A DNA stretch of 32,000 nt, from contig NC_014833.1 of the NCBI RefSeq assembly GCF_000179635.2, forward strand, positions 750,001-782,000. The letters are read 5' to 3'. Origin of the DNA: Ruminococcus albus 7 = DSM 20455 (GTDB taxonomy: Bacteria > Bacillota > Clostridia > Oscillospirales > Ruminococcaceae). Below the pieces are notes generated by a model that did not search any database, was not told where the DNA came from, and saw only the letters and a program-made list of their open reading frames with translations. Positions 5,423 through 24,904 of this stretch are shown piece by piece. Within the stretch, counting starts at the first letter, position 1. Each line of letters opens with the position of its first letter. The position numbers and the translations under genes were made by a program.

Positions 5423-5469
5423 AATATGTACCTCCTCGGTAAATATCACAGCGTACCTTTTCAATACAT

Positions 5470-5536: not shown

Positions 5537-6982
5537 TTATTCAAGTCCCCACGATTTTTTCTTTTTAGTGGGCTGGTATTCTATCTGTTGTGCCTGCTCT
5601 CGCTGACGCTGTTCTTTTTCTTCCTGCACCAACGCTTTCGCCTGTCTGAGAATATCGGGTGCTATCCTTTCAAGCATTGAATACACCTCGCTGTATCTCC
5701 TGTTTTCGGACTTGACCGTTTTCAACTCGGAAGAAAGACCCGAATTTTCTTTTCTGACAGCATTCAGCTTCTCACGAGCTTCATCACGCTCGGCGATAAA
5801 CTCATCACCACGCTTGTGCAGACTGAAAATGGTGCGGTCTGCTTTGCGCTGCCTCTCCATAGCTGTTTTCGTAAGGCTCTTCAAAGTGTCTATCCAACTG
5901 AGGATAGAATCCTTGTTCCTGAGTATTGACATACCGCTTTTCAGCAGTTTGTCGAGTTCCGATACGGCGACAAGATATTCGTGTTCATCATCAAAGTTTT
6001 TCTCCATATCAGGAAGATAGGTCAATGCCTTATTGACCTGCTCGATCTTTTGTGACAGCTTGGCATCTGCCTTTTCGGTTTCTTCTGTCACCGAGGACAG
6101 CTTTTCCTCGCTTTCGGAAATATCTTTCTTTGTGTCTTCCAGCGTGCTTTCAGCCGACTTCACTTTGTCCTCCACGGCACTCAGTTCGGACAGCTTCATA
6201 TCTATCAGCTTGTCGGCTGCGTCAAGTTCCTCCTGACGCTTTTTCAGCTTGAATTCTTTCAGCGGCAGACCCTCTTTTGCTTCTTCCAGCTTCACCCATT
6301 CGATACCACGTTCCAGCATTAGCTGACCGATGTGAACCTTCTCCTGTTCGAGCCAGTCTATCGTGATCGTCCTGCTGATACCTTTGCTCTCACAGCCCTG
6401 CTGACGTAAAGCACCCGTCAGAGAGTTTCGGACACGCATTCCGTTCTTTCTTTTCTCGTCGGTCACAGGCACAAAGTCAAGGTGCAGGTGGGGCGTGCTT
6501 TCGTCCATGTGTATCACGGCATTGAACAACTTCAAATGGGGATTTCTCTCCTCAAATGAACGGGCATATTCTTCCAGAACAGCCGCCGCTTCTTTGCACA
6601 TTTCGGAGTCCACACCCGTATCATCACGGTTGCCGACCTGGAACAGAACTTCATAGAATTCTTTCTCCTGTCGGCTGTGACGGATATGCTCCTGATAGTT
6701 TGCAATTTTCCTGTCACGCCTTGTCTGTCTTGCGTTGAATTCTTCCAGCGCTTCATCGAACAGATCGTGATAGAGTTGTTTGAGAGAACGCTGACAAATT
6801 ATTATGTCATCGGCGATTTTTTCTTTATCTACATTCGCCGTGATTATCGAGCGGTTGTTGTGGTTCAGATCACCCTTGCCGATACAGCCGCTCAGGGTTC
6901 TTTTTACGATAATATCATCTCCTAAATCATTGATACCGCACAGCGGTAAAAGGCTATTCGCCAACTGCCGACGGAGCGGCAT
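5537..6982 (-). CDS. mob: MobV/Pre-family relaxase (plasmid recombination enzyme type), long coiled-coil C-terminus
   Basis: Has the HMDESTPHLHLDFVPV (HxDE..PHxH) motif and N-terminal GKGDLNHNNR. The start is uncertain. The track ORF reaches 7069 but would then cover the oriT-like region. ATG 6982 has no RBS. Alignment to the IME-2 relaxase plus an AGGAGA at 6923-6918 suggests a non-canonical ATT/ATC start near 6913-6908. Confidence 0.88.
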   Translation of the reverse strand: MPLRRQLANSLLPLCGINDLGDDIIVKRTLSGCIGKGDLNHNNRSIITANVDKEKIADDIIICQRSLKQLYHDLFDEALEEFNARQTRRDRKIANYQEHIRHSRQEKEFYEVLFQVGNRDDTGVDSEMCKEAAAVLEEYARSFEERNPHLKLFNAVIHMDESTPHLHLDFVPVTDEKRKNGMRVRNSLTGALRQQGCESKGISRTITIDWLEQEKVHIGQLMLERGIEWVKLEEAKEGLPLKEFKLKKRQEELDAADKLIDMKLSELSAVEDKVKSAESTLEDTKKDISESEEKLSSVTEETEKADAKLSQKIEQVNKALTYLPDMEKNFDDEHEYLVAVSELDKLLKSGMSILRNKDSILSWIDTLKSLTKTAMERQRKADRTIFSLHKRGDEFIAERDEAREKLNAVRKENSGLSSELKTVKSENRRYSEVYSMLERIAPDILRQAKALVQEEKEQRQREQAQQIEYQPTKKKKSWGLE

Positions 6983-7143
6983 ATATATTGAAGCCTGCAC
7001 AGCAGGCAATCGGTGCGCAGCACCGAAAAATTCGGCAGGAGCCGAATTTGCTTCTGTTACTCTTGGCAAGAGTAACGCAAAGACACTTCCGACAGCCGAG
7101 CGACCGTCTATCAGAAGTGTCTATTGCGCCCTGCGGGGCTGAA

Positions 7144-7716: not shown

Positions 7717-7818
7717 AAATTAAACCTCTTTCTTTCTACGGTTTGTGTTTTATGGATTTTGGGATTTTTGCACCTTTTGCATCTCAAAAAGCCCAAAAGG
7801 TGCAAAAGACAGATTCCC

Positions 7819-9279
7819 TTAACTGAAAACGTGCGGATTGACCTCAATATCGGTCACGGTTTTGTTGTTTGAGCCCTTGCTTGTAAAACGGCGAAGATAG
7901 CCGTATTCTTCCAGCATATCTATCGTTTCGTTAAAGTCCTGAGCGTTTTTGAACAGGGTGCATCTGCAAAGGTGGTGCAGATTGTTTTGCCTTATCTTCG
8001 TGATATGTTTTGAGCGTATTTTGGCAAGTACCCTCTCGGCTTTGACGGTTGCAAAGTCAGTGTCACCCAAGCTGTAAGCATATATCGCCTGCTCTCTGAA
8101 ATACTCGCCGATCTCAATTGCGTTGCAAAAGGTGTCCAGATCGACACGAACTTCAACAGGGTCAGAGCCGTTCAGCGCACATTTTATGCAGTGAATAATA
8201 CCGCACAAACGCAGGATAAGTCCGTGATATTTTCCGCCCCAATCCTTGCAGAAAGCCATATCGGTGACAAGCTGAGGTTCAATGTAATTGTTGTAGTAGT
8301 CAACGAACTCGCCGTAAGCCTTGCCGTCGAAGTGGAGATATTTCTCCATGTCGCTGTGGAAAGTAAACTTATCCTGCAACAGCTTGTATGTCAGATTTTT
8401 GTAGTTTTCGATGACCGCTTCGGGGACAGCCTGCGTGTCATACTTTCGTGAGCCGATATTGCTTTTCGGGAAACAGTACAGAAAACGTGCAATAAGTCCG
8501 CTGCCACGAAATGCCGTGTTGTTTATCATGCTGTCGAACACATAGGGCTGACAAGCAAGGCAAACGCTCATGTAAGGCTTTTTGAGGACAATACTCGCTC
8601 GTGTCGCTCTGTCGCTGATGAACGTTTCGCCGTTCCAGCACTTCAAAAGCAGGTCAATGTTGGGAACGTTGTTGCTGTAACGTCCGCTGAAATTACCGAG
8701 CATTCCTGCTTCATCGGAGATCATCAGCAAGGTGTTATTTTCTTCAAGCAGACGTACCAGCGATTCAGGTGTAACATCGTCCACCGCTATCCTGCGGAAG
8801 TTGCTCTGAGGGATATTGCTGAGGTCGGTTTGCAGCTTGGCTATCTCCTCGGCAGTAACATCATCTTTCTTTTCAAGAGCGAGCATCTTGCTTTCCAACA
8901 GCTTGCGTTCAGCCTGCGACTTGAAAATATCCTGCTTGTTGCTCTCGTTCCAGTCGTGGGCGAATGTGGCGTAGGGACGCTTCACAAGAGAAATAACAGG
9001 CGATTTCTTAAAGCTCGGCTCTGCAACGGTTAGGGAGTAAAGCACCAGTGGCTCGGTGTGGTCACGCTTGGCAGACATTCTGTAAACTCCCGAAAAGCAG
9101 TAGCTTACCGCCGAGAGTATGGAAGTTCCTGCCATTGCAACGTCTGTTGAGGTTGTAGTCGCTATCGCCTGTGCCATGTCTCCTATAATAGGCGGCAGAG
9201 CGTTCACAGGGAACAGCAGGAGGTTTGTCCCGTCGGGACGGAGGGGTGTGGGGGTTGCCCACAGTGTTTCATTGTTCAA
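7819..9279 (-). CDS. DUF3987-like protein (putative replication/primase-helicase-associated IME protein)
   Basis: 486 aa with a TTG start at 9279 preceded by AAAGGACGA. It has a close paralog in IME-2. The family assignment comes from memory of DUF3987-type proteins on Firmicutes/Bacteroidetes mobilizable elements and is not verified. Confidence 0.75.
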   Translation of the reverse strand: MNNETLWATPTPLRPDGTNLLLFPVNALPPIIGDMAQAIATTTSTDVAMAGTSILSAVSYCFSGVYRMSAKRDHTEPLVLYSLTVAEPSFKKSPVISLVKRPYATFAHDWNESNKQDIFKSQAERKLLESKMLALEKKDDVTAEEIAKLQTDLSNIPQSNFRRIAVDDVTPESLVRLLEENNTLLMISDEAGMLGNFSGRYSNNVPNIDLLLKCWNGETFISDRATRASIVLKKPYMSVCLACQPYVFDSMINNTAFRGSGLIARFLYCFPKSNIGSRKYDTQAVPEAVIENYKNLTYKLLQDKFTFHSDMEKYLHFDGKAYGEFVDYYNNYIEPQLVTDMAFCKDWGGKYHGLILRLCGIIHCIKCALNGSDPVEVRVDLDTFCNAIEIGEYFREQAIYAYSLGDTDFATVKAERVLAKIRSKHITKIRQNNLHHLCRCTLFKNAQDFNETIDMLEEYGYLRRFTSKGSNNKTVTDIEVNPHVFS

Positions 9280-9557: not shown

Positions 9558-10553
9558 ATGCTGTTATACCGTATAAATGAAAAAGACCGCACCGTGAGTA
9601 TCGTGTGGTCTATCAATAAAAATGAACTTCTGTCGGCTTCTGAAAAAGAAAAGGTCTATACGTTTGATGAGATACTGTCCCAGCTTGAAGATTTTCGCAA
9701 CAATCGCAGTGAGATATTTGAAAATCTCCGTATCACTATGATGAGCGGTCTGAACGAGCGTATCAAGGTTCAGGATCTTGTAAAAAATGTCGGGTCTGCT
9801 GTTATCCAAAACAGTGACAACGTATTTTTCAAGTATTACAGTAATCTGCTTACGGTAGCTTATATGAACATCGGTGAGCCTATCCTGATGCCGAAGGACT
9901 ATGTCAAGGAGAGATTCAACCATAAAAAGTTGGTGGAAACGGCAAGAGCTGAGCTTCAGAAGCAGTTTGACGAGATATTGCAGGCTATGAACGATGAGCG
10001 TAATTTTGACTACTCGGCTACGGGAGAAATACTGGTCGCTACTCAGAGGTCACAGCTTGCTGTCATTCGCACCGAGAACACCAACATCGTGTATCGTGTT
10101 GCCGATAAACCGCTGCTCACTTTCTTCTATGAATTCAGTTTCGCAGTGTTTAATGCCGGACTTAAAGTTTGTGAGTGCAGGTTCTGTCACCGCCATTTTC
10201 TTGGGACGGAAGAAGCTGTGTGCTGTGAACGTGAAGAATGTCTTGCTGAAAATAAAAGGCTGAAAAATCAGATGATAAGGGAGAAACGTAAAAACAGCGA
10301 CTACACTCGTGACATGGATAATTACACCGCCTATGTCAGAAATAAGAAAAAAGATTTGAGGATAGCCAAAGTCAGCCCATACGTCATGGACGAGTTTGAT
10401 GATCTGAAAAAGAAATGCAAGGCTGTCGTTGACAGCAAGCTGGCGGAATGTGTTGAATTCGGATTGCCTGTTGCAGAGCTGGCTCATACGATCGAAGAAC
10501 AGGAAGCTGTTATCAAGGCTTTCAGGGATAAGGCGTTGGCGGAGAATAGGTGA
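9558..10553 (+). CDS. Conserved IME backbone protein with Cys-rich (zinc-binding-like) motif, function unknown
   Basis: 331 aa, RBS GGGAGAGG. Motif CECRFCHRHFLGTEEAVCCEREEC. The IME-2 paralog (24905-25924) shares YRINE.DRT and CECGFCHKLFLGTEGEVCC. Confidence 0.8.
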   Translation: MLLYRINEKDRTVSIVWSINKNELLSASEKEKVYTFDEILSQLEDFRNNRSEIFENLRITMMSGLNERIKVQDLVKNVGSAVIQNSDNVFFKYYSNLLTVAYMNIGEPILMPKDYVKERFNHKKLVETARAELQKQFDEILQAMNDERNFDYSATGEILVATQRSQLAVIRTENTNIVYRVADKPLLTFFYEFSFAVFNAGLKVCECRFCHRHFLGTEEAVCCEREECLAENKRLKNQMIREKRKNSDYTRDMDNYTAYVRNKKKDLRIAKVSPYVMDEFDDLKKKCKAVVDSKLAECVEFGLPVAELAHTIEEQEAVIKAFRDKALAENR

Positions 10554-10627
10554 TGAGGGAGACTTTGATTCCGGTGGATCCAAAGTTACAATTTAATGAA
10601 AAATGGCGGAAATAATAGCCGAAAGCA

Positions 10628-10656
10628 TTGATCTTTAGCTCTCTTTGTGCTATAAT
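10628..10656 (+). promoter_or_regulatory. Cargo promoter of IME-1 (extended -10)
   Basis: TTGATC (10628-10633), 17-nt spacer, TGcTATAAT (-10 at 10651-10656). The block TTGTG(C/T)TATAATGTAA(A/T)TTGGA is conserved at 26007-26030 in IME-2. Confidence 0.6.
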
Positions 10657-10705
10657 GTAAATTGGACATTGATAACTATAATTAGGCTGTTTTAGGGTGA
10701 TTGAA

Positions 10706-11584
10706 ATGTACACAACTGTAAAACCTTTTATAAAGTGGGCAGGCGGCAAAAGCCAGCTTCTTGAAGAAATAAGAAAGAAATACCCTGCCAAGATCGAACG
10801 TTACTGTGAACCGTTTGTCGGCGGCGGAGCAGTGCTTCTTGATGTGCTTGCAAATTTTCAGCCAAAGGAAGTGCTGATAAACGACATCAATCCCGAACTG
10901 ACAAATACCTATATTCAGGTAAGAGATAATGCTGAAAGTATTATTGCCACACTTTCAGAGATGCAGGGCGATTTTTGGGATATGAATGATGAAAAGCGTA
11001 AAGAATACTTTTATTCTCAGCGAGAGCGCTTTAATGAACTTATAAAGCAAAGTGCATCGACTGAAGAAAAAGCTGCTTTATTTATTTTTATTAACAAGAC
11101 TTGCTTTAACGGACTTTATAGAGTCAATGGCAAAGGGCTGTACAATGTTCCTATGGGGGCATATAAAAAACCGCCTATTTGCGATGCTGAAAATATTCGC
11201 ACAATAAGCGAACTTCTAAAAAGAGTAGACGTTCACTGCGGCGATTATAGTGAATGCGAATCATTTATTACTGATAATGCTTTTGTCTACATAGATCCGC
11301 CATACCGCCCATTGAATGCAACTTCATCTTTTACCTCTTACGCCAAAACAGAGTTCGGCGATGAACAGCAGATACAGCTTGGACATTTCATTGAAAAGAT
11401 TTCTGAAAAGGGTGCTAAGGTTGTAGCGAGTAATTCTGATCCGCATAATACAGATGAAAATGATAATTTCTTTGATGATATTTACAAGATGTTTTTCATC
11501 GACAGAGTTGCCGCTACAAGAATGATAAACAGCAAATCAAATGGTCGAGGAACAGTTAGCGAACTGCTGATTTGCAATTATTAA
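10706..11584 (+). CDS. Dam/DpnM-class N6-adenine DNA methyltransferase (GATC-type, alpha class)
   Basis: PFIKWAGGKSQLL, EPFVGGGAV (motif I) and VYIDPPY (motif IV) occur in Dam order. I prefer ATG 10706 (RBS AGGGTGA) over the track's GTG 10697. Confidence 0.9.
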   Translation: MYTTVKPFIKWAGGKSQLLEEIRKKYPAKIERYCEPFVGGGAVLLDVLANFQPKEVLINDINPELTNTYIQVRDNAESIIATLSEMQGDFWDMNDEKRKEYFYSQRERFNELIKQSASTEEKAALFIFINKTCFNGLYRVNGKGLYNVPMGAYKKPPICDAENIRTISELLKRVDVHCGDYSECESFITDNAFVYIDPPYRPLNATSSFTSYAKTEFGDEQQIQLGHFIEKISEKGAKVVASNSDPHNTDENDNFFDDIYKMFFIDRVAATRMINSKSNGRGTVSELLICNY

Positions 11585-11600
11585 AGGAAGGAGGATTTCT

Positions 11601-11774
11601 ATGCCTTACGGTGAGTACGCAGAGTGTCCTAATTGCGGAAAAACTGCTCATGGTGAAGATGAGATTGAGGAACTGTTTGGATACAGAAATATGGGCGACG
11701 GTCGCACAATACCTCAGTCGTGGTGCCGTGATTGCAGAAGCTCCGGTGGACATGATGACGATGATGATGAATAA
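11601..11774 (+). CDS. Small zinc-ribbon protein with poly-acidic tail (57 aa); not in the ORF track (below cutoff)
   Basis: My translation: MPYGEYAECPNCGKTAHGEDEIEELFGYRNMGDGRTIPQSWCRDCRSSGGHDDDDDE*. Strong RBS AAGGAAGGAGGA lies 6 nt upstream. It has CxxC...CxxC pairs and sits between the methylase and the endonuclease. Confidence 0.6.
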   Translation: MPYGEYAECPNCGKTAHGEDEIEELFGYRNMGDGRTIPQSWCRDCRSSGGHDDDDDE

Positions 11775-11867
11775 TCATCTGTTCGGATTTTGAAGTGACT
11801 GTTGGCAGCAATCATTTGATTCTGCCAACAGTTTACACCTTAATAACGTATAGGCAAGATAATCAAA

Positions 11868-12725
11868 ATGAAAAGAGATTTTAACGAATGGCTCGGTAAA
11901 TTCAGAGACAGTATAGCGAACTATGAATACTATATTGACTTTGCAAAGGTACATAAAAACGTTGACAGCATAAAGGTTGAACTTAATATTCTGAATGCCT
12001 TAATCGGCTCAAAGGATATTGAAAACGAGTTTATGCAGATAGTAAGCAAGTATCCCGAAACGCTGAAATGTATTCCTTTGTTGCTTGCTGTCAGGGCGAA
12101 TGAAATATATGCAATAGACGGTGACGGGGAATTCTCTTATAACTTCAAGAAGATGAACTACTCTCCCGAACAGTACACTGTATTTATGCGTAAAACAGGC
12201 TTGTTTGAGCTTATGGAGAAGCATATTATCCACAGCCTGGTCGATTATGCAACAGGTGTGGAAACAGGTCTTGATTCCAACGGAAGAAAAAATCGTGGCG
12301 GACATCTCATGGAAGATCTTGTTGAAAGCTTTATTGTTAAGGCCGGATATATCAAGGGTCAGAATTATTTCAAGGAGATGTACATTCACGAAATAACCGA
12401 GAAATGGGGCATCGACCTTTCTGCTATATCCAATCAGGGCAAGGCGGAAAAGCGTTTTGACTTCGTTATCAAGACCGAAAATATGATTTATGGTATTGAA
12501 ACAAACTTCTATGCAAGCGGTGGTTCAAAGCTGAATGAAACTGCAAGAAGCTATAAACAGATAGCACAGGAAGTTGATACCATTGACGGATTTACGTTCG
12601 TATGGTTCACCGACGGCAAGGGCTGGCAGAGCGCAAGACGTAACCTCGAGGAAACGTTTGATGTGCTGGATACGGTTTATTCGATTGATGATTTAGAGAA
12701 AGGAATCTTAAAAGAGGTGCTATAA
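11868..12725 (+). CDS. DpnII/MboI-family type II restriction endonuclease (GATC)
   Basis: Recalled DpnII (dpnB) similarity runs along the whole length: FNEWL...YYIDF.KV.KNV.SIKV.LNI.N.LIGSK, GVE.G.D.NGRKNR.G, RFDFVIK, NFY.SGGSKLNETARSYK, W.TDG.GW. The RBS is weak. Confidence 0.88.
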   Translation: MKRDFNEWLGKFRDSIANYEYYIDFAKVHKNVDSIKVELNILNALIGSKDIENEFMQIVSKYPETLKCIPLLLAVRANEIYAIDGDGEFSYNFKKMNYSPEQYTVFMRKTGLFELMEKHIIHSLVDYATGVETGLDSNGRKNRGGHLMEDLVESFIVKAGYIKGQNYFKEMYIHEITEKWGIDLSAISNQGKAEKRFDFVIKTENMIYGIETNFYASGGSKLNETARSYKQIAQEVDTIDGFTFVWFTDGKGWQSARRNLEETFDVLDTVYSIDDLEKGILKEVL

Positions 12726-14443
12726 TGAACATTCAGGTTAATAGAGTTGCTGGAAAACTTAAAGAATTATTTGCTGGTAAAATAGATTTATCAGATGTTA
12801 ATGGTGACAAAGATAAAGCGTTCTTATCACGGTCGTTAGCGTTATATGGCATAATGATGAACACAGACAGTGATGTAGACACTGTAATTCAGTCATTAAC
12901 AGATGGATATCATGATAATGGAATAGATGCTGTTTATTGTGATGACGATCAAAAAACAATGTATTTAATTCAATCAAAGTGGAGTAATGATGGCAATCAT
13001 TCTATTTCTCAAGGAGATACTTCTGTTTTTATTTCAGGCATTTCAAAACTCATAAATGGTGATTTTACAGGTTTTAATGAAAAATTTGAGCCGTTAAAAG
13101 TTTTTATAAATAATGCGATTTTATCTACAGATTATAAAATCAGAGCGATTATAATATATACTTCAAATCAAAAATTTTCAGATGAATGCCAAGAAGTTAT
13201 GCGTTCGTTTGTAGATAATACTAACGATGGAATTGAAATAATAAGCTATGAAGTTATTCAATTGAAAGATATCTATCAATCATTGGCAGATAAAATTAAC
13301 CGAACAATAATGTTGGAAAACGTCGGACTACAAGATTATGGTATTTTGGAAAGAAATGAACAAGAGATTGGGTATTATGGTAAAATACCAGTTAGTACAA
13401 TTGCTAATTGGTGGAAGGAATACGGAACATACCTGTTTTCCAAAAATATTAGGTACTATAAAGGTGATACTGAAGTAAATGCAGGTATAAAATCGGTTTT
13501 GATGAATGAACCAGAGAACTTTTTACTCTTCAATAACGGTATAAAAATAGTTGCTGATAAAATAAATAAAGCCCCATATGGATCTAATGGACGTAAATTT
13601 GGAGTTTTTTCTTTAGAAAATGCAAGTATAGTTAATGGCGCTCAAACCACAGGGTCTATCGGTGAAATGCTTTCCAAAATGCAAGAAAGTATTGAAAATG
13701 CTTATGTTTTAATACAGATGATAAGCTTAGAATCATTAGCAACTGATATGAACGATAAAATCACAAAGTATTCAAATACACAAAATAGGATTGAGAACAA
13801 GGATTTTGTTTCTTTAGATCCTAATCAAAGAAAACTACAACAAGACTTTGCTATGGAAGGTATTGAATACTACTATAAATCTGGCTATACAATTAAAGAC
13901 GAAGAAAAAAGCTGTAGTATTGATGATGTTGCCATTGCTATCGGTTGTGGCTTAAGTAATGTGGCACTTGTTGGTACAATCAAAAGCAATTATGGTAAAA
14001 TCTTTGAAAAAATAGACAAACCCCCATATACTGAAATTTTCGGCACTAAATACTCCACATATTTTATCTGGAATAATATTCAAATATATCGTATTTTTGA
14101 ATCAATAAACACAGATTATCAGAAAAAATCCAATAAATTACATAAGTTAATTAGTGTTCATGGAAATAGATTTTTATTGCATATATTTCTAAATGTTTTT
14201 TCGATGAAAAATAACTTAAATTCATGTTTCTTAACAGAAATAGCTCTTGATGATTTGAGAAATGATATTAGAAAGAACTTACCGCTTATCATAGACCAAC
14301 TTGTCGAAATTAAAAACAAAGATTTTACTGATTCTTATCCTGCTAATATTTTTAAAAATGGTAAAAGATGTGAAGAATTGTTTGAGAAGCTTAGTCAAAC
14401 TGATATATATATATCTATGCAGAAACAGGATGTAATGGTCTAA
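12725..14443 (+). CDS. AIPR-family abortive-infection protein
   Basis: 572 aa with GYHDNGIDAVY...LIQSKW and IVNGAQTTGS blocks typical of AIPR. The ATG overlaps the endonuclease stop (TAATG), and its own stop overlaps the next ATG (TAATG). It is visibly more AT-rich than its neighbours. Confidence 0.78.
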   Translation: MNIQVNRVAGKLKELFAGKIDLSDVNGDKDKAFLSRSLALYGIMMNTDSDVDTVIQSLTDGYHDNGIDAVYCDDDQKTMYLIQSKWSNDGNHSISQGDTSVFISGISKLINGDFTGFNEKFEPLKVFINNAILSTDYKIRAIIIYTSNQKFSDECQEVMRSFVDNTNDGIEIISYEVIQLKDIYQSLADKINRTIMLENVGLQDYGILERNEQEIGYYGKIPVSTIANWWKEYGTYLFSKNIRYYKGDTEVNAGIKSVLMNEPENFLLFNNGIKIVADKINKAPYGSNGRKFGVFSLENASIVNGAQTTGSIGEMLSKMQESIENAYVLIQMISLESLATDMNDKITKYSNTQNRIENKDFVSLDPNQRKLQQDFAMEGIEYYYKSGYTIKDEEKSCSIDDVAIAIGCGLSNVALVGTIKSNYGKIFEKIDKPPYTEIFGTKYSTYFIWNNIQIYRIFESINTDYQKKSNKLHKLISVHGNRFLLHIFLNVFSMKNNLNSCFLTEIALDDLRNDIRKNLPLIIDQLVEIKNKDFTDSYPANIFKNGKRCEELFEKLSQTDIYISMQKQDVMV

Positions 14444-15186
14444 TGAAAAAAATCAAAAAATGGGAGCCCGATGATTTTGAACTTGAAATGACTACTCACT
14501 GGTCATTTCCGAAGCGTGGGGATTGGGCAACCCACGATGCTAAGTGGCGTGGCAACTGGTCGCCATATATACCGAGAAATATCATTCTCAGATATTCGCA
14601 GGAAGGCGATTTAGTTCTTGATCAGTTTGCGGGCGGAGGTACAACCCTCGTCGAAGCTAAGCTGCTCAACAGAGATATAATCGGTGTTGACTGCAACGAT
14701 GAAGCACTCACACGCTGCCGTGAAAAGATAGATTTTGACTATCCTCCTGCACATGGCAAAGTGTTTTTGTATAAGGGCGATGCTCGTGATTTATATTTTC
14801 AGAGTGACGAGTCTGTTGACCTTATTTGCACCCACCCGCCCTATGCTGATATAATCAAATACAGCGATGGAATACCGGAGGATTTATCGCAGCTCAAAGT
14901 AAAAGACTTTCTTGAAGCTATGAAGCCTGTTGCAGCTGAGTGTTATCGTGTGCTGAAAAAAGGAAAGTTCTGTGCAGTGCTTATGGGCGATACACGTCAA
15001 AAGGGCTGTATGATACCTATGAGTTTTGACGTGATGAAGATATTTCAAGAAGCAGGATTTACGCTGAAAGAGCTTATCATCAAAGAACAGCATAACTGCA
15101 AAGCAACGGGATATTGGAAAACCAACAGCGTTAAGTACAATTTTCTGTTGATAGCACACGAATACTTATTCGTATTCAGAAAGTAA
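14443..15186 (+). CDS. Small DNA methyltransferase (N-4/N-6 methylase domain) with motif I before motif IV and no obvious target-recognition domain
   Basis: 247 aa. VLDQFAGGGTTLVEAKLLNRDIIGVD (AdoMet motif I) precedes DLICTHPPYADII (motif IV with His in the first position). Translationally coupled to the AIPR gene and followed by a strong terminator. Confidence 0.8.
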   Translation: MKKIKKWEPDDFELEMTTHWSFPKRGDWATHDAKWRGNWSPYIPRNIILRYSQEGDLVLDQFAGGGTTLVEAKLLNRDIIGVDCNDEALTRCREKIDFDYPPAHGKVFLYKGDARDLYFQSDESVDLICTHPPYADIIKYSDGIPEDLSQLKVKDFLEAMKPVAAECYRVLKKGKFCAVLMGDTRQKGCMIPMSFDVMKIFQEAGFTLKELIIKEQHNCKATGYWKTNSVKYNFLLIAHEYLFVFRK

Positions 15187-15197
15187 ATAATGGTTTT

Positions 15198-15234
15198 AAG
15201 CCGTATGTTTCACTATATGTGAAACATACGGCTT
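15198..15234 (+). terminator. Rho-independent terminator after the second methylase
   Basis: Perfect 16-bp stem AAGCCGTATGTTTCAC / GTGAAACATACGGCTT with loop TATAT, followed by TTAGTTTTAT. Confidence 0.75.
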
Positions 15235-15330
15235 TTAGTTTTATGTTATAATTATCATAGAGAAAGGGTGAGCGATGTGTTGTTTGAATCGGACGAAAAA
15301 TTGTATGCGGTTATCGGCAAAAATATAAAA

Positions 15331-16353
15331 TATGGTTATCCCTTTAACACACCACAAGTAAGATCACTGCACCAAAGCAGCCAAAAGCCTTAAATACGCA
15401 CTGTTTCCCAGCTTACGACGGTTGAATTTGTAGCAGTATTCGGCAGCATATAACGCTGTGTGGATCTTTTCGTTTCCGTGGTAAGTTCCCATGATCATTG
15501 CTTTGAAGTTTGATATAACTTTATGCATCCAGTTCAGCTGACCGCTTGTCGGATCATATGTTTCAAAAACATGGAAGTATTTCTGTGCCAACGGTTTCTT
15601 GTAACTTCGAGCATTATCACTCTCGATCTTCGAGCCTGCGCGGATATTATCCCTGGCAAATCTACCAACAGTTATACCCTTTAAATTCGGCACATCGCTC
15701 ATTTTAACGTACTCGGGATTTCCTGCTGCGTTCTTTGACAAAGCTACTATCATCTTGACTTTTTCAGTTCCTCTGCCACGCTTTTTACCGTGAGTCGGAG
15801 CACCGAGATACGTGTCATCAAGTTCAACGATCCCGTCAAGCAAATAGCGTTCTTCACGGCATTTCATAGCTTTTCTGATGCGATGAAGGATGTACCATGC
15901 AGTCTTGTAGGTCACCCCCAAAGACCTCATCAGCGTAACAGCAGAAACGCTGCATTTGTTGCTCATAATGAGGAATGCGGTGACTATCCACAGTCTGAGC
16001 GGAATATGTGTTCTGTGCATAAAAGTTCCGTTTGTGGCGGATATATCTGCTTTACAGAACTTGCATCGCAGCAGATGGCGTGACCTTATCCTGCGGTACT
16101 CAGAGCCACCGCAAAACGGGCAGGCAAAACCCTTTTCAAAGCGGATATCAAGCAGAAAATCCTTGCAAAAGCTTTCATCTGCGAACTTTGAGTATATCCC
16201 ATCAAGTGTGATCTCAGGTTTCGGAAATCTTTTTGACATAGCGACAGCTCCCTTCGGTTTCTGTCACTATTATACTATATTTTCTGAGTTTTGAGGTCTG
16301 TTTATTTGGACAGCATTGTAAATTATCTGTGGTGTGTTAAAGGGATAACCATG
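15331..16353 (-). mobile_element. IS1595-family insertion sequence, copy A (1023 bp)
   Basis: Terminal inverted repeats ATGGTTATCCCTTTAACACACCACA at both ends. 8-bp target-site duplication ATATAAAA. Single transposase ORF. Confidence 0.88.
15364..16239 (-). CDS. IS1595-family (ISXO2-like) transposase with N-terminal zinc ribbon
   Basis: 291 aa with CPFCGGSEY...CKFC zinc ribbon, VELDDTYLG and ESDNARSY DDE-type blocks. The translation is identical to that of 17013..17888. Confidence 0.9.
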   Translation of the reverse strand: MSKRFPKPEITLDGIYSKFADESFCKDFLLDIRFEKGFACPFCGGSEYRRIRSRHLLRCKFCKADISATNGTFMHRTHIPLRLWIVTAFLIMSNKCSVSAVTLMRSLGVTYKTAWYILHRIRKAMKCREERYLLDGIVELDDTYLGAPTHGKKRGRGTEKVKMIVALSKNAAGNPEYVKMSDVPNLKGITVGRFARDNIRAGSKIESDNARSYKKPLAQKYFHVFETYDPTSGQLNWMHKVISNFKAMIMGTYHGNEKIHTALYAAEYCYKFNRRKLGNSAYLRLLAALVQ

Positions 16354-16898
16354 ATATAAAAAAGTATAGGACGATTGCAGGACTAACACAAGTTCAGTTG
16401 TGTGAGAAAACTGGAATCAGTTTAAGCTATCTTACGAAACTGGAATCTGCTAAGTGTGATAAGAGTGTTTCTCTTTCTTTTCTTAACTTGTTAGCTAATA
16501 CGCTGAATGTTGATATTACTGTATTTTTCAAGGAGAGTGATTAACTATGCCAAGAACCCCGAATACACACGGCGGTGGAGCATTAACAAATGCAAATGGG
16601 TTGCATTTTGAACAGACTACTGACTTAGATGATGCTTTAATTAGAAAAGGATATAGCATTTCAAAAATAGGTGAAGTGTATGGTAATGGTATACATATAG
16701 GATTCAGCAAAAGAAAAAAAGATTTTAGACGATTTTTACAAGCAAACGGAGTGAATTTAAGTGTTAATTCAGATGCTTTAGAACCAGATGATGCTTTCAT
16801 AAACGTCAGAAATCAAACCGTATATATAATTGAAAAGAAATTCCAAAGTGTATCAGGTTCTGTCGATGAAAAACTTCAAACATGCTTATATAAAAAAA

Positions 16899-17921
16899 CA
16901 TGGTTATCCCTTTAACACACCACAGATAATTTACAATGCTGTCCAAATAAACAGACCTCAAAACTCAGAAAATATAGTATAATAGTGACAGAAACCGAAG
17001 GGAGCTGTCGCTATGTCAAAAAGATTTCCGAAACCTGAGATCACACTTGATGGGATATACTCAAAGTTCGCAGATGAAAGCTTTTGCAAGGATTTTCTGC
17101 TTGATATCCGCTTTGAAAAGGGTTTTGCCTGCCCGTTTTGCGGTGGCTCTGAGTACCGCAGGATAAGGTCACGCCATCTGCTGCGATGCAAGTTCTGTAA
17201 AGCAGATATATCCGCCACAAACGGAACTTTTATGCACAGAACACATATTCCGCTCAGACTGTGGATAGTCACCGCATTCCTCATTATGAGCAACAAATGC
17301 AGCGTTTCTGCTGTTACGCTGATGAGGTCTTTGGGGGTGACCTACAAGACTGCATGGTACATCCTTCATCGCATCAGAAAAGCTATGAAATGCCGTGAAG
17401 AACGCTATTTGCTTGACGGGATCGTTGAACTTGATGACACGTATCTCGGTGCTCCGACTCACGGTAAAAAGCGTGGCAGAGGAACTGAAAAAGTCAAGAT
17501 GATAGTAGCTTTGTCAAAGAACGCAGCAGGAAATCCCGAGTACGTTAAAATGAGCGATGTGCCGAATTTAAAGGGTATAACTGTTGGTAGATTTGCCAGG
17601 GATAATATCCGCGCAGGCTCGAAGATCGAGAGTGATAATGCTCGAAGTTACAAGAAACCGTTGGCACAGAAATACTTCCATGTTTTTGAAACATATGATC
17701 CGACAAGCGGTCAGCTGAACTGGATGCATAAAGTTATATCAAACTTCAAAGCAATGATCATGGGAACTTACCACGGAAACGAAAAGATCCACACAGCGTT
17801 ATATGCTGCCGAATACTGCTACAAATTCAACCGTCGTAAGCTGGGAAACAGTGCGTATTTAAGGCTTTTGGCTGCTTTGGTGCAGTGATCTTACTTGTGG
17901 TGTGTTAAAGGGATAACCATA
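16899..17921 (+). mobile_element. IS1595-family insertion sequence, copy B (1023 bp), inverted relative to copy A
   Basis: Same terminal inverted repeats as copy A. 8-bp target duplication TAAAAAAA (16891-16898 / 17922-17929). The transposase and even the antisense spurious ORFs translate identically to copy A. Confidence 0.88.
17013..17888 (+). CDS. IS1595-family (ISXO2-like) transposase
   Basis: Its 291-aa product is identical to that of 15364..16239. Confidence 0.9.
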   Translation: MSKRFPKPEITLDGIYSKFADESFCKDFLLDIRFEKGFACPFCGGSEYRRIRSRHLLRCKFCKADISATNGTFMHRTHIPLRLWIVTAFLIMSNKCSVSAVTLMRSLGVTYKTAWYILHRIRKAMKCREERYLLDGIVELDDTYLGAPTHGKKRGRGTEKVKMIVALSKNAAGNPEYVKMSDVPNLKGITVGRFARDNIRAGSKIESDNARSYKKPLAQKYFHVFETYDPTSGQLNWMHKVISNFKAMIMGTYHGNEKIHTALYAAEYCYKFNRRKLGNSAYLRLLAALVQ

Positions 17922-18109
17922 TAAAAAAATGCAGTATGAAAAACTTGTATCACAAATTGGATGTGATATTGTGTATACATATGTGTTAAGCGATTGGTTC
18001 AAGCAGGATAAGTATCGTGATGTATTAAACTATATACAGTATGTAGGTTGTTACTATTTTTTTAATGAACTACCATTAGATTTTTTAGGACTTTAAAAGG
18101 AGTATTATT

Positions 18110-18634
18110 ATGGCAGAACATCAAATCAACTTCAATTTTGATGCAGTTGGGGATAGGAATAAAGTCAGAATGGAAGTTGTTAATGAACTTTCAAAAGAAG
18201 AACCTGGTCAAGGTAAGAAAGATTTAGCAAGCAGATATACCTATTACGTCGAAACTCTTAATGACGGAAATAGGATATACCTTAGAAGACCTGCTAATCT
18301 TCATAATGGATTTGATTTTGTAGTTGGAGTTGAAAACATTAATTTCAATCCAAACGGGAGAAGACGCAGTTATCCAAAACATGATGACATTATTATTGAT
18401 CTAACAGAAAAGAAGAAGGAAAGTTCTAAGAAATATAGACAACTCTATTCGGTATTGGAGAAGGTATATAAATGTGAGTCAATAAGCGCAGATGAAATGT
18501 TTCTGACATTCAAAACCGGATTTACAACAGAATTGATCATTAAAACGTTAAAATGGTTGTTTATCGAGCAGGATATACGATATTGGAATTATTCCGGCAG
18601 AGATATGCTTTGGAACGCAATAAAAAACGTATAG
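18110..18634 (+). CDS. Hypothetical protein (174 aa), last gene of the disrupted C/R operon
   Basis: RBS AAAGGAG lies 7 nt upstream and the ATG is 14 nt after the endonuclease stop. I recognise no family. It contains ...YLRRPANLHNGFDFVVGVENI... and ...WLFIEQDIRYWNYSGRD... Confidence 0.7.
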   Translation: MAEHQINFNFDAVGDRNKVRMEVVNELSKEEPGQGKKDLASRYTYYVETLNDGNRIYLRRPANLHNGFDFVVGVENINFNPNGRRRSYPKHDDIIIDLTEKKKESSKKYRQLYSVLEKVYKCESISADEMFLTFKTGFTTELIIKTLKWLFIEQDIRYWNYSGRDMLWNAIKNV

Positions 18635-19745: not shown

Positions 19746-20927
19746 TTAACTTGTGCTATCCTGCGGAAGAAAGCTGAACGCTCCGTCCATTGCCTGAGCC
19801 ACTCTCGCCTGTGCAGTCTGGAACATATGAGCATAGACGTTCAAAGTCGTTCCCGAATTGCAATGTCCTAACGCACCCGATACTGTTACCACATCAAGCC
19901 CCGATGAGATCAAGGCAGAAGCTGCGAAATGACGGAAGCTGTGAATACCGTAGAAAGGCATATCGTTCTTCTCGCAGAACTCTTTCAGCCAGCCGTAAGG
20001 TGTCTGGTTGTTCATGGGTTCGCCGTTCCACTTGACGAACAGCCTGTCGCTCTCTACCCACTTGTCACCAAGCCTGAGTGCTTCCTCGTCCTGCTCATCT
20101 TTCAGCTCTTTGAGGATATTCATAATGTACGGACTGATCTTCAGCACACGCTTTGAGCGTTTGGTCTTGGTGGTGTCGGTGTAGATGCCACGCTCTGCCG
20201 TGTAATTGCTCGTTCTCTTGATGCTGATAATATTGTTCTCGAAGTCGATGTCCTTCCATTCAAGACCGAGCATTTCGCTCCTGCGGAAACCGCTGTACGC
20301 TATCAGATAGAAGAAAGCTCTGTACTTCGTGTCCTCGCCGTTGATAGCCGTCAGAAGCTGTGCGATCTCTTCCTGAGAGTAGATAGGCTTCTCCTTGACC
20401 TCGCCTTTCGGGATAGTCACTTTCCTGCACGGATTATCAGATACCAAGTCCATACGAACAGCGTAGCTGAACACGTCCGATATAAAGCTCAGGTTGTGAC
20501 GAATCGTCTTCGGTGCGAGGGGCTTGCCTGTCTTTTCGTTCGCTCCCTCTTTGGCGAGAGAGTTCACGAAGCCCTGCAAGTGCCTTGCGGTTATCTTGTC
20601 GATACGCAGATGACCGATAGCAGGATAGACACGGTGCGTGAGCTGGAGCATACGCTCGTATGTAGTGCTTCTGAGAGCATTCTTGGCGTAGTTCTCGAAC
20701 CATTCCTCCGCAAGCTCCTGAAACTTCATAGCAGAAGTCTTGTAGCCGTGGTTGACAGCTTCCTCGAACATGACTGCCTGTCTGTTCAGTTCCTTTTCGA
20801 TCTGCTTCTTGCTCATACCCTCTTCGGGTCGCCAAGTCATGGACTGCTCCATGTGTTTACCGTTTACATCATAGCCACAGCTTACTCTGATAAGGTAGCT
20901 GTCGCCACGTTTCTTTATGGTTGCCAT
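19746..20927 (-). CDS. int: Tyrosine recombinase / integrase of IME-2
   Basis: 393 aa starting MATIKKRGDSYLIRVSCGYD. Has HSFRHFAASALI and GHCNSGTTLNVYAH blocks, and shares WKD(V/I)DFENNIIS with the IME-1 integrase. RBS AGGAGG. Confidence 0.93.
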   Translation of the reverse strand: MATIKKRGDSYLIRVSCGYDVNGKHMEQSMTWRPEEGMSKKQIEKELNRQAVMFEEAVNHGYKTSAMKFQELAEEWFENYAKNALRSTTYERMLQLTHRVYPAIGHLRIDKITARHLQGFVNSLAKEGANEKTGKPLAPKTIRHNLSFISDVFSYAVRMDLVSDNPCRKVTIPKGEVKEKPIYSQEEIAQLLTAINGEDTKYRAFFYLIAYSGFRRSEMLGLEWKDIDFENNIISIKRTSNYTAERGIYTDTTKTKRSKRVLKISPYIMNILKELKDEQDEEALRLGDKWVESDRLFVKWNGEPMNNQTPYGWLKEFCEKNDMPFYGIHSFRHFAASALISSGLDVVTVSGALGHCNSGTTLNVYAHMFQTAQARVAQAMDGAFSFLPQDSTS

Positions 20928-21057: not shown

Positions 21058-22254
21058 TTATTCTAATTCTGTACTTCTCGACCTGTTATATCGGTACTTT
21101 GCGAAGTCCTCCGTCAGTCCACAGGCAGATATGAAAGCCCTTGCCTTTTGCAGGTCACGGGATAGCTGATCTTCACGTTTGATACGCTTAGCTTCGGCGT
21201 TCTGCTTTTCACGGGAGAAGAAACGCTTGTCCTCCTCTTTCTTTTTGTAGGCAGAAAGCTCCGAGGAAACGGCTTCAAACTGCTGTTTCATAGCACCAAG
21301 TTCCTGCACGGCAGCATCACGTTCTTTTTTCAGCTTTTTGATGTTCTTTTCCATAGCGACATACTTCTTTGCGGTGTCGCTGAGTTTATCATAGTCCTCC
21401 TTAGTGAGAGTGACCTTTTTGCCGAACATAGACTCCTTAGCTTCGATGCTCTCTATCTCGGTGATATTCACTTTCTTCTTGGAGAGCTTCTCAAACTCTG
21501 CAACAGTCTCGTCACGCTCTGCGGTAAGCCTTTCGATCTCAGCGTTAAGGGCGTTTATCTTGTCCTGATGCTCGCCGTATTCCTCGACCGTGTAGCTGTA
21601 ACCCCTGGACTTCTTAGGCTCGCTGATCTCGATACCGTGAGCATTACAGATATTCTTCAAAATATCCCACTCGGCAAGTCTCCAACGGTTGTTCGCCTTT
21701 GCGTCCTTTCCGAAGTTCATTTCTTCGAGAGCTTTGTTCTTGGCGTTGCGAACTTCAAGACCGTTTTTGAAATGTCCTATGGGGATATAGTCGATGTGCA
21801 GATGCGGTGTCGATTCATCAAGGTGCATAACAGCGTTGAACACATAGAAATTCGGGTTTCTCTCCTGAAAGCCCTCCATGTATTCACGCAGGCACTCTTT
21901 CGTTATCTCTGCATCGGGAGTACCTATGCCTGAATCCTTTTTCGTTCCGATGTAAACGAGATGTTCATAGAAGCATTTCTGCTTGTTGGCGTTGACAATA
22001 AAACTCTTGCTGGGCGGACGATTGAACAGGTGTTCAAAGTAGTCACCGATCTTGCGATCCTTTCTTTTCTGACGGGCGTTATACTTCTCGACTGCTTCAT
22101 CAAAAAGCTGGTGATAGGCTTCTCCCAATTCCTGCTGAACGAACACGATGTTGTTCGGCGTTCTGGAGCTGTCGATATTCTTGGCAGTGAACTCTCTGTT
22201 GTTATGTGAAAGGCTGCCTTTACCCTCACACATAGAGATTGATTTTTCACTCAT
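21058..22254 (-). CDS. mob: MobV/Pre-family relaxase of IME-2
   Basis: 398 aa with GKGSLSHNNRE and MHLDESTPHLHIDYIPI motifs. RBS AAGGAGA. Confidence 0.92.
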   Translation of the reverse strand: MSEKSISMCEGKGSLSHNNREFTAKNIDSSRTPNNIVFVQQELGEAYHQLFDEAVEKYNARQKRKDRKIGDYFEHLFNRPPSKSFIVNANKQKCFYEHLVYIGTKKDSGIGTPDAEITKECLREYMEGFQERNPNFYVFNAVMHLDESTPHLHIDYIPIGHFKNGLEVRNAKNKALEEMNFGKDAKANNRWRLAEWDILKNICNAHGIEISEPKKSRGYSYTVEEYGEHQDKINALNAEIERLTAERDETVAEFEKLSKKKVNITEIESIEAKESMFGKKVTLTKEDYDKLSDTAKKYVAMEKNIKKLKKERDAAVQELGAMKQQFEAVSSELSAYKKKEEDKRFFSREKQNAEAKRIKREDQLSRDLQKARAFISACGLTEDFAKYRYNRSRSTELE

Positions 22255-24625: not shown

Positions 24626-24845
24626 TGAATTATCATCGTCCTTTCTGATTTGATCTATAAAAGCACTTTTATATGTATAGCGGTCAACATCGTCATGTTG
24701 CTCCGCTGTCAGAAGTCTTTCGCAACTGACATGAACATTGTAACATTTCTTTCGGAGGGCTTGTGCGTGTATTGCGTATTTACGCAAAATAATACGCAAG
24801 ATATTTTTAAATACGAATATAATCACGCAATAATACGCATTATAA

Positions 24846-24874
24846 TTGACAGTTTGCGTGTTATATGCTATAAT
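24846..24874 (+). promoter_or_regulatory. Promoter of the Cys-rich backbone ORF (IME-2)
   Basis: TTGACA (24846-24851), 17-nt spacer, TATAAT (24869-24874). Embedded in a cluster of TACGCAA/TTGCGTA motifs. Confidence 0.6.
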
Positions 24875-24904
24875 GGAAAAAGATACTGAAAGCGAGGAGA
24901 GCGT

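Follow-up and report, generated by a model that had tools for sequence, protein, structure and literature searches.

An AIPR-family gene at the variable junction between DpnII-type endonuclease and second methylase in a restriction-modification cassette of Ruminococcus albus 7

The DNA analysed here, a stretch of 32,000 nucleotides from Ruminococcus albus 7 = DSM 20455 (hereafter the window), contains a restriction-modification (R-M) cassette in which a gene of the AIPR family lies between a DpnII-type restriction endonuclease and a second methylase, named M2. The genes are co-directional and follow a Dam-type methylase. The features of this region, in window coordinates, are:

10628 to 10656, plus strand: sigma-70-like sequence that is the best candidate promoter ahead of the cassette (TTGATC-17-TATAAT, extended by TG), a consensus match only; the region has 21 promoter-like sites, no enrichment over shuffles (18.1 +/- 3.9).
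10697 to 11584, plus strand: M1, Dam-family (D12 class) N6-adenine DNA methyltransferase; MethyltransfD12 match in Pfam, E = 4e-65.
11868 to 12725, plus strand: DpnII-family type II restriction endonuclease; Pfam DpnII (PF04556), 369.6 bits, E = 1.3e-110.
12712 to 12727, plus strand: DpnII-to-AIPR junction, a GAGGTG Shine-Dalgarno sequence and then a TAATG overlap at 12723-12727.
12725 to 14443, plus strand: AIPR / AbiU-like protein of 572 amino acids; Pfam PF10592, 126.5 bits against a cutoff of 25, E = 2.3e-36.
14441 to 14445, plus strand: AIPR-to-M2 TAATG stop/start overlap, read directly from the letters.
14443 to 15186, plus strand: M2, S-adenosylmethionine (SAM)-dependent methyltransferase of 247 amino acids; Pfam N6_N4_Mtase (PF01555), 93.3 bits against a cutoff of 26.7.
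15198 to 15244 including the T-rich tail (hairpin 15198-15234), plus strand: intrinsic terminator with a 16-bp stem and a 5-nt loop.

The TAA stop of DpnII (12723-12725) overlaps the ATG of AIPR (12725-12727), and the GAGGTG Shine-Dalgarno sequence lies 7 nt upstream. An earlier, sequence-only reading of this DNA had described this overlap and placed it at 12722-12727, one base off; the second overlap, between the AIPR stop and the M2 start, is exactly where it had been put. The 16-bp-stem terminator proposed to close the unit was confirmed by the fold of its hairpin (-26.2 kcal/mol, z = -7.6 against shuffles, with 0 of 200 shuffles folding equally well), and the letters after the 16-pair stem and 5-nt loop are TTTTAGTTTT. 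Together, the overlaps and the hairpin support the claim that DpnII, AIPR and M2 would form one tightly coupled expression unit with a strong terminator.

The family assignments of DpnII, AIPR and N6_N4_Mtase were all confirmed by hidden Markov model searches with scores clear of their cutoffs. M1 scored 281.7 bits with TIGR00571 dam (cutoff 114.85), and its start in public gene calls gives a protein of 292 amino acids. The DpnII match spans profile positions 1-278 of 278, that is, its full length, and is accompanied by a PADLOC REase_II match (E = 1.3e-100); its family membership and the adjacent Dam-family methylase imply that the enzyme probably cleaves unmethylated GATC. In AIPR the PF10592 domain covers residues 238-488, while the PADLOC AbiU profile (PDLC02357, E = 3.5e-29) matches residues 38-557 over profile positions 28-535 of 537. 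The AIPR gene is, as had been noticed, more AT-rich than both neighbours: its GC content is 29.5% (22% at third codon positions, GC3) against 40.0% for DpnII, 42.6% for M2 and 42.8% for the whole window. These values support the view of AIPR as a compositionally foreign insert joined to its neighbours by start/stop overlaps.

The cassette without AIPR is widespread. One genome per species was scanned, and a relative of M2 was found in at least 495 species, mostly Clostridia (Oscillospiraceae, Acutalibacteraceae, Ruminococcus) and some Negativicutes; the detailed survey of M2 neighbourhoods covers the best 80 loci drawn from these genomes, with two further M2 loci, L001 and L007, noted beside the 80 and outside that count. 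In 70 of the 80 loci M2 is preceded by a Dam homologue, and most of the others offer too short a stretch of sequence on that side. DpnII abuts M2 directly in 48/80 loci and is separated from it by extra DNA in 17/80; a further 11/80 have no DpnII, with a Dam gene and another gene upstream, and in 4/80 neither Dam nor DpnII was found upstream on the same strand. Of these last four, two offer too little sequence before M2; in L043 M2 comes directly after DpnI, and in L061 it comes after an unrelated gene, Dam and DpnII lying in inverted orientation at a distance of about 5 kb.

Where DpnII and M2 adjoin, a T(AA/GA)TG stop/start overlap was present in 44 of the 48 junctions and a Shine-Dalgarno-like motif in 47. 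The overlap is typically preceded by GAGGTTTTTAAA, which gives the form GAGGT-N7-TAATG, and the DpnII-to-AIPR junction of the window, GAGGTGCTATAATG, is the counterpart of this DpnII-to-M2 junction. By comparison of these sequences, we show that the DpnII-to-M2 coupling junction is ancestral and that AIPR was slotted into it. The alternative that the TAATG overlaps are a product of the AIPR insertion was rejected, as the first overlap corresponds to the ancestral junction. Since the coupling is ancestral to DpnII and M2, it speaks against the suggestion, made from the sequence before these comparisons, that M2 serves the AIPR protein. This suggestion was not supported by the survey either: only one other AIPR occupies the slot among the 80 M2 loci, and AIPR relatives also lie downstream of M2 or in cassettes with a DpnA-type second methylase.

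Genes other than M2 follow DpnII, in the position occupied by AIPR in the window, in 17/80 loci and also in L001 and L007. The recognisable ones all lie on the same strand, are tightly packed and in most loci are AT-richer than their flanks. The occupants of this slot are:

L028: a different AIPR of 668 amino acids, 28% identical to the window AIPR over the aligned part.
L018 and L042: two ThsB-type TIR genes and a membrane protein.
L050 and L051: Mrr_cat.
L027: HNH.
L021 and L022: a HARE-HTH protein.
L024: DUF3825.
L035 and L084: a DUF5655-containing protein.
L045: a P-loop protein.
L001: PDDEXK_11.
L007, L017 and L082: proteins of the p174 family, named after a gene farther downstream in the window.

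The genes in the slot are therefore nested, in the same orientation and variable at one site (17/80 loci), which is how embedded defence genes are recognised. A second variable position, from Dam to DpnII, is filled by small Cys-rich open reading frames (ORFs), PDDEXK_11, Mrr or a 445-amino-acid protein. Loci lacking DpnII have in its place PDDEXK_11, a MutH-like protein together with PDDEXK_11 or p174, or DpnI, and the nuclease position between Dam and M2 is itself interchangeable (L013-L092). This recalls the alternative Dpn cassettes that occur at one pneumococcal locus.

The edges of the insert lie close to the junctions. Compared with the AIPR-less locus L001, DNA homology breaks off at 12710 and is regained at 14446; the corresponding positions for L028 are 12703 and 14434. 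A syntenic locus, L093, has the same arrangement as the window, and the encoded proteins share 100% amino-acid identity for the small ORF between Dam and DpnII, 96.5% for DpnII, 99.2% for M2 and 83.7% for Dam, but 67.9% for AIPR. At the DNA level, identity to L093 falls from about 0.94 to about 0.7 at position ~12,700 and returns to 0.96 at ~14,440, the most divergent part being the C-terminal third of AIPR (0.57-0.63). As DpnII and M2 are nearly identical at the two loci and AIPR is not, the aligned sequences indicate that, between conserved recombination anchors, either one AIPR allele was exchanged for another or the gene changed far more quickly than the DNA on both sides. The AIPR of L093 is identical to one annotated in Ruminococcus bicirculans, in which close homologues already carry the name of AIPR family proteins.

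Conservation and structure models of the window AIPR are consistent with a working protein. In an alignment of 32 sequences (the window protein and 31 homologues at 38-75% identity), D60, G61, D64, G66, D68, D73, Q83 and K85 of the N-terminal domain are invariant, as are the NGAQT motif of the AIPR domain (N304, G305, A306, Q307, T308) and more than 50 further columns. Every clade-invariant residue is kept and the structure models are confident, so the protein appears to be intact. The AlphaFold2 (AF2) model has a mean predicted local distance difference test score (pLDDT) of 85 for the whole protein and of 89 for residues 1-215, the latter with a predicted template modelling score (pTM) of 0.82. 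In this model D68 starts one strand and Q83-x-K85 ends the next, which is the layout of a PD-(D/E)XK site; the N-terminal ~190 amino acids may thus be a restriction-endonuclease-like domain with a D...QxK signature, and AIPR a putative nuclease. An identification as MzaE of the MZA system was rejected, as the NCBIfam match reached 60.4 bits against a cutoff of 1050 and covered residues 221-372 only; the partner genes MzaA-D were not found in the window.

The contexts of the AIPR clade were examined by targeted look-ups and by a scan of metagenome contigs that yielded 80 loci at 33-75% identity. The arrangement of the window recurs in L093 (AIPR 68% identical to that of the window) and in L109 (53%). 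In L098 (46%) the gene follows a cassette of Dam, DpnA-like methylase and DpnII, with an M2-like gene and a divergent controller protein (C-protein) gene upstream; L107 (44%) has the same context, with the C-protein gene followed by a PDDEXK_11 gene, and in L102 (40%) AIPR follows a BglII-family endonuclease and an MT-A70 methylase. Among the 80 metagenomic loci, 18 are next to DpnII cassettes, 15 follow a BglII-like endonuclease with an MT-A70 methylase, and 10 follow a double D12 methylase with an AlwI-family endonuclease. At least one follows type I hsdM and hsdS (L191; L192 and L193 encode similar AIPRs), one a C5 methylase and one a weak DpnA-like (N6_N4_Mtase-type) match, and the remainder of the 80 have no R-M genes detected or flanks that are too short. 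Altogether, at least 46/80 of these clade members lie 3' of R-M genes.

The DpnII-linked AIPR genes use three positions: between the endonuclease (R) and M2, after M2 (L126, L135, L136, L143 and L189), and after cassettes of two methylases and an endonuclease (M-M-R), true examples of the latter with AIPR appended being L098, L107 and L120-L124. The idea that AIPR is tied specifically to the R-to-M2 position was discarded, given its relatives after M2 or after M-M-R cassettes. Judged by its neighbourhoods, AIPR is a promiscuous 3'-side passenger of R-M operons.

M2 departs from the known second methylases of such cassettes. It matches the N6_N4_Mtase profile in two stretches and the PADLOC profile MTase_II PDLC03376 at E = 1e-139. 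An N-terminal motif I (FAGGGT, residues ~62-67) is followed by motif IV (THPPY, ~130-134), in which the His at the first position is unusual. Residues 45-94, the motif I region, align to the C-terminal part of 2zie, DpnA (5hek), MboIIA and CcrM, and residues 104-217, THPPY included, to the N-terminal part of 2zie; the same permuted relation holds between M2 and the DpnA-like protein of L107. According to these alignments M2 is a circular permutation of the beta-class N6/N4 methylases (DpnA, MboIIA, CcrM), and the previously proposed difference in architecture from DpnA is real, motif I preceding motif IV in permuted order. Homologues of M2 number about 8000 clusters at E <= 1e-10, the top 120 being 83-92% identical, and NCBI names the close ones 'TRM11 family SAM-dependent methyltransferase' or 'site-specific DNA-methyltransferase'. 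One enzyme considered as possible kin of M2, M2.Pin17FIIP, is described as a 'second GATC methylase' in Prevotella intermedia and was inactive when cloned (PMC5608340). It was set aside, its 978-bp gene (~325 amino acids against 247) being not demonstrably related.

In L043 (6237-7702) and L085 (4978-7741), M2 directly follows an intact gene of the methyl-dependent DpnI family, and in L081 a fragmented DpnI lies between an apparently intact Dam gene and M2. It is hard to reconcile an M2 that makes G6mATC on duplex DNA with DpnI, because the arrangement with intact DpnI should be lethal; this co-occurrence suggests that M2 is not simply a second GATC adenine methylase. The constant linkage of M2 to Dam and its translational coupling to DpnII imply that it probably belongs to the GATC cassette. 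It may instead, or in addition, serve another nuclease, to which point the DpnI loci, the convergent C-protein and p174 genes that follow M2 in L019, L023, L030 and L055, and the two arrangements, described below, in which M2 neighbours a C-protein gene and PDDEXK_11.

Classical DpnII cassettes have the order dpnM-dpnA-dpnB and the MboI system the order M-R-M, the comparison made here being one of gene content and order. The surveyed cassettes share with them a Dam-type first methylase, a DpnII endonuclease and a second methylase, and their insert-free M-R-M order matches that of MboI. The order in the window (M, small ORF, R, AIPR, M2) departs from the M-M-R order of dpnM-dpnA-dpnB, and its M2 is not DpnA-like, since its alignment to DpnA-type enzymes is confined to motif I and shows the permuted order. 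Nested defence genes are known in other systems, PrrC embedded in a type I R-M system (EcoprrI) being one example and DarTG2, which lies between hsdS and hsdR, another (PMC12255303). A survey of 'guilt by embedding' covers Hma, BREX, DISARM and type I R-M, and found that embedded defence genes share the orientation of the host system in 96.7% of cases (Payne et al. 2024 preprint, bioRxiv 10.1101/2024.01.29.577857). The window has in common with these cases the same-strand nesting of an unrelated defence gene at a site with different cargo across genomes; it differs in having a compact type II cassette as host and, as slot, the very junction at which translation is coupled.

Lactococcal AbiU (AbiUi; Dai et al. 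2001) is a plasmid-borne, single-protein abortive-infection system that alone confers modest resistance, delays phage transcription and is nuclease-like in AF2 models (review PMC13064643). The window AIPR resembles it in its near full-length profile match, in its similar size (572 amino acids) and in the predicted nuclease-like region that both have; AbiUi, however, pairs with the HEPN protein AbiUii and has not been described inside a DpnII operon. The association of AIPR genes with R-M operons has been described since 2008 (Iyer, Abhiman and Aravind, PMC2292703), and the sequence-only reading was right to call it known. The genes of that study belong to the same family and likewise lie on the same strand within R-M operons or at their 3' end. 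In contrast, the AIPR of the window is internal, between endonuclease and second methylase and overlapped on both sides, and its slot, unlike that description, is a position at which several families are swapped.

Taken together, we consider it probable that AIPR is one of several alternative cargoes of a slot in a mobile R-M cassette. In this proposal the region would be the defence cargo of an integrative mobilizable element, and its core a widespread, horizontally mobile cassette in which a Dam-type methylase is followed by a DpnII-type endonuclease and M2. M2 would normally be translated by coupling to the endonuclease through the GAGGT Shine-Dalgarno sequence and TAATG, and the DpnII-to-M2 junction would behave as a recombination slot, the ATG of AIPR replacing that of M2 and the AIPR stop recreating TAATG with M2. 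A single transcription unit ending at the hairpin (15198-15234) would then co-express first-line restriction and a second-line effector. AIPR itself may act without M2, as a stand-alone nuclease of the abortive-infection type, by analogy with the delayed phage transcription caused by AbiU and in line with its structure model. Embedding would then presumably serve co-regulation and co-transfer, not a biochemical partnership.

Several observations weigh against this proposal. Promoter-like hexamers occur within the AT-rich AIPR gene (13283-13311 and 14004-14032), and M2 could thus have a promoter of its own; co-transcription and translational coupling at the locus are deduced from sequence alone. 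The nuclease assignment of the AIPR N-terminal domain is likewise open to doubt, as its match to Pfam Mrr_cat_2 is weak (E = 0.005, below the cutoff). Foldseek searches of the PDB with the models of the full protein and of the N-terminal domain gave no match at E <= 0.001 (best 0.056-0.08), even though restriction-fold proteins (EcoO109I, arenavirus endonuclease, Nt.BspD6I, Cdn1, MUS81) were frequent among the weak top matches, and PDB sequence searches with AIPR, as a single sequence and as a 32-sequence profile, found no match; searches of the same kind with PDDEXK_11, p174, DpnII and the BglII-like protein also found none. Finally, the closest relatives of the window AIPR, those of L115 and L117 (75% identical), have ordinary neighbours and, like several others, no R-M genes within 4 kb. 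In addition, a DpnII gene directly precedes AIPR in clade members whose identity ranges from 44 to 100%, and a genuine functional tie to the restriction enzyme is therefore conceivable.

A different explanation starts from the genes downstream of M2. In L093 the intact island consists of M2, a terminator, an HTH_3 controller of 81 amino acids (the C-protein), a PDDEXK_11 nuclease of 172 amino acids (7795-8313 of that locus) and p174. The corresponding part of the window contains:

15268 to 15330, plus strand: 5' remnant of 21 codons of the HTH_3 controller (C-protein) gene, colinear with L093; the rest lies at ~16354-16544.
15331 to 16353, minus strand: insertion sequence (IS) of the IS1595 family, copy 1; transposase 15364-16239, with DDE_Tnp_IS1595 and Zn_ribbon_IS1595 Pfam matches.
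16547 to 16898, plus strand: N-terminal part of the PDDEXK_11 nuclease gene (172 amino acids when intact); the C-terminal part lies at ~17919-18096.
16899 to 17918, plus strand: IS1595-family copy 2; transposase 17013-17888, its protein identical to that of copy 1.
18110 to 18634, plus strand: p174, 174 amino acids, of an uncharacterised family that elsewhere occupies the slot or replaces DpnII.

Copy 1 cuts the controller gene, at a point where the flanks overlap by 8 bp relative to L093, and the inverted copy 2 cuts the PDDEXK_11 gene, leaving p174 intact; the disrupted downstream nuclease seen in the sequence-only reading is thus real and is split by an IS1595-family element. M2 might, as that reading had also proposed for the disrupted nuclease, be the cognate methylase of C-protein and PDDEXK_11, that is, part of a second type II R-M system now inactivated by IS1595, which would adjoin DpnII and AIPR only through the fusion of two systems. 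The order of genes in L093 is in agreement with this, and L107 has an M2-like gene (56% identical) in divergent orientation next to a C-protein gene (58%) and a PDDEXK_11 gene (54%), while the DpnII of that locus has its own DpnA-type second methylase. PDDEXK_11 also lies directly upstream of M2 in L001, L014, L034, L037, L038, L074, L078 and L083, and the intact DpnI beside M2 in L043 and L085 points the same way. Nevertheless, a profile search with a radius of 7 kb found no PDDEXK_11 or p174-family gene around M2 in most of the 80 loci, M2 is coupled directly to DpnII in the 44 of 48 insert-free cassettes mentioned above, and the place of PDDEXK_11 in five loci is not beside M2 but between Dam and DpnII. 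Moreover, the M2 of the window has stayed intact, with 99.2% identity to that of L093, although the C-protein and nuclease genes downstream of it have both been destroyed. We regard this explanation as unlikely.

It is less likely still that AIPR is a guard or back-up of the restriction enzyme which, in the manner of PrrC, would be kept latent by the GATC R-M system or would detect its failure, and would be set off once a phage blocked or escaped restriction. The position immediately 3' of DpnII genes, retained over 44-100% identity and in several cassette architectures, would fit such a role, as would the other identifiable partners, which are BglII-family and AlwI-family R-M pairs with AIPR always on the same strand and on the 3' side. 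The association is equally explained, however, by co-transfer and recombination at conserved flanks; AIPR comes after M2, not after R, in the five loci listed above for that position, its closest relatives and several others lack R-M neighbours, and AbiUi works alone in Lactococcus (PMC13064643).

A narrower form of this idea, which we consider doubtful to the same degree, is that the AIPR clade is a dedicated back-up for R-M systems recognising GATC-containing sites and not a free-standing abortive-infection gene. The clade partners assignable to type II families (L114-L193) belong to the DpnII, BglII and AlwI families only. The type members of these families recognise GATC, AGATCT and GGATC, respectively, and AlwI-family members also recognise GAGTC; the GATC link of the partners rests on these type members and not on the partners' own specificities. 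If the idea held, AIPR would sense either the G6mATC state or how active its partner enzyme is, and would respond when a phage escapes or blocks restriction; selection would have made the DpnII-to-M2 junction of a type II operon the place where such second-line effectors dock.

A modification-dependent pair of AIPR and M2, in which M2 would protect host DNA from AIPR or mark it for AIPR, is very improbable and already largely refuted by the neighbourhood survey: the TAATG coupling of the two genes and the presence of M2 or an M2-like gene in most DpnII-linked AIPR loci sampled speak for it, but M2 occurs without any AIPR in 78/80 species loci, AIPR relatives without M2 lie beside BglII-like, AlwI-like or type I systems or alone, and the AIPR alleles are swapped (68% identity) while M2 is constant (99%), so that the two do not co-vary.

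The embedding of AIPR in an R-M operon is in itself nothing unusual; of the results obtained along the way, the slot survey is the one of most use. It extends 'guilt by embedding' to a compact type II system whose cassette is found in at least 495 species of gut Firmicutes, and it nominates p174, the DUF3825 and DUF5655 proteins, the 445-amino-acid protein and the 57-amino-acid Cys-rich ORF described below as defence candidates. AIPR alleles that differ by 32% between flanks 96-99% identical are also a clean natural case of cassette exchange or diversifying turnover.

The window comprises two tandem integrative mobilizable elements with the same backbone of tyrosine integrase, Mob_Pre relaxase and DUF3987 protein:

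Element 1: integrase 4232-5464, Mob_Pre relaxase 5537-7069, DUF3987 protein 7819-9279; its cargo is the DpnII/AIPR island.
Element 2: integrase 19746-20927, Mob_Pre relaxase 21058-22254, DUF3987 protein 23156-25066; its cargo is an Eco57I/MmeI-like type IIG enzyme (26070-28478).

A megablast search with positions 10600-15300 against plasmid and phage collections gave no match. The 545-bp stretch between the two IS copies (16354-16898) is 99.5% identical to L093 and its flanks 83-89%, a contrast that suggests recent recombination or a composite-transposon mosaic around the IS copies.

The protein p174 had no match in Pfam or PDB. Its relatives (for instance L007 5450-6001 and L019 4935-5471, minus strand) occur in the DpnII-to-M2 slot, in the place of DpnII, or convergently after M2 behind an HTH C-protein gene of their own, the last arrangement being found in L019, L023, L030 and L055. 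This gene context suggests an uncharacterised restriction nuclease. One public record calls a member of the family 'DNA adenine methylase', probably wrongly.

Two ORFs of the cassette region lack recognised families:

11601 to 11774, plus strand: Cys-rich ORF of 57 amino acids between Dam and DpnII, sequence MPYGEYAECPNCGK...CRDCR.
9558 to 10553, plus strand: ORF of 331 amino acids with a Cys-rich centre, directly upstream of the cassette.

The first, which had no match in Pfam and fell into no family in the family scans, has a CxxC...CxxC pattern and an acidic tail and may be a regulator. Homologues occupy the same position in L001, L022, L028 and L093, and its exact sequence is present on 746 contigs; in other cassettes it is replaced by an unrelated Cys-rich ORF of 84-85 amino acids. 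The 331-amino-acid ORF had no match in Pfam, PADLOC or NCBIfam, and its gene also precedes the cassette on other contigs that carry an identical AIPR.

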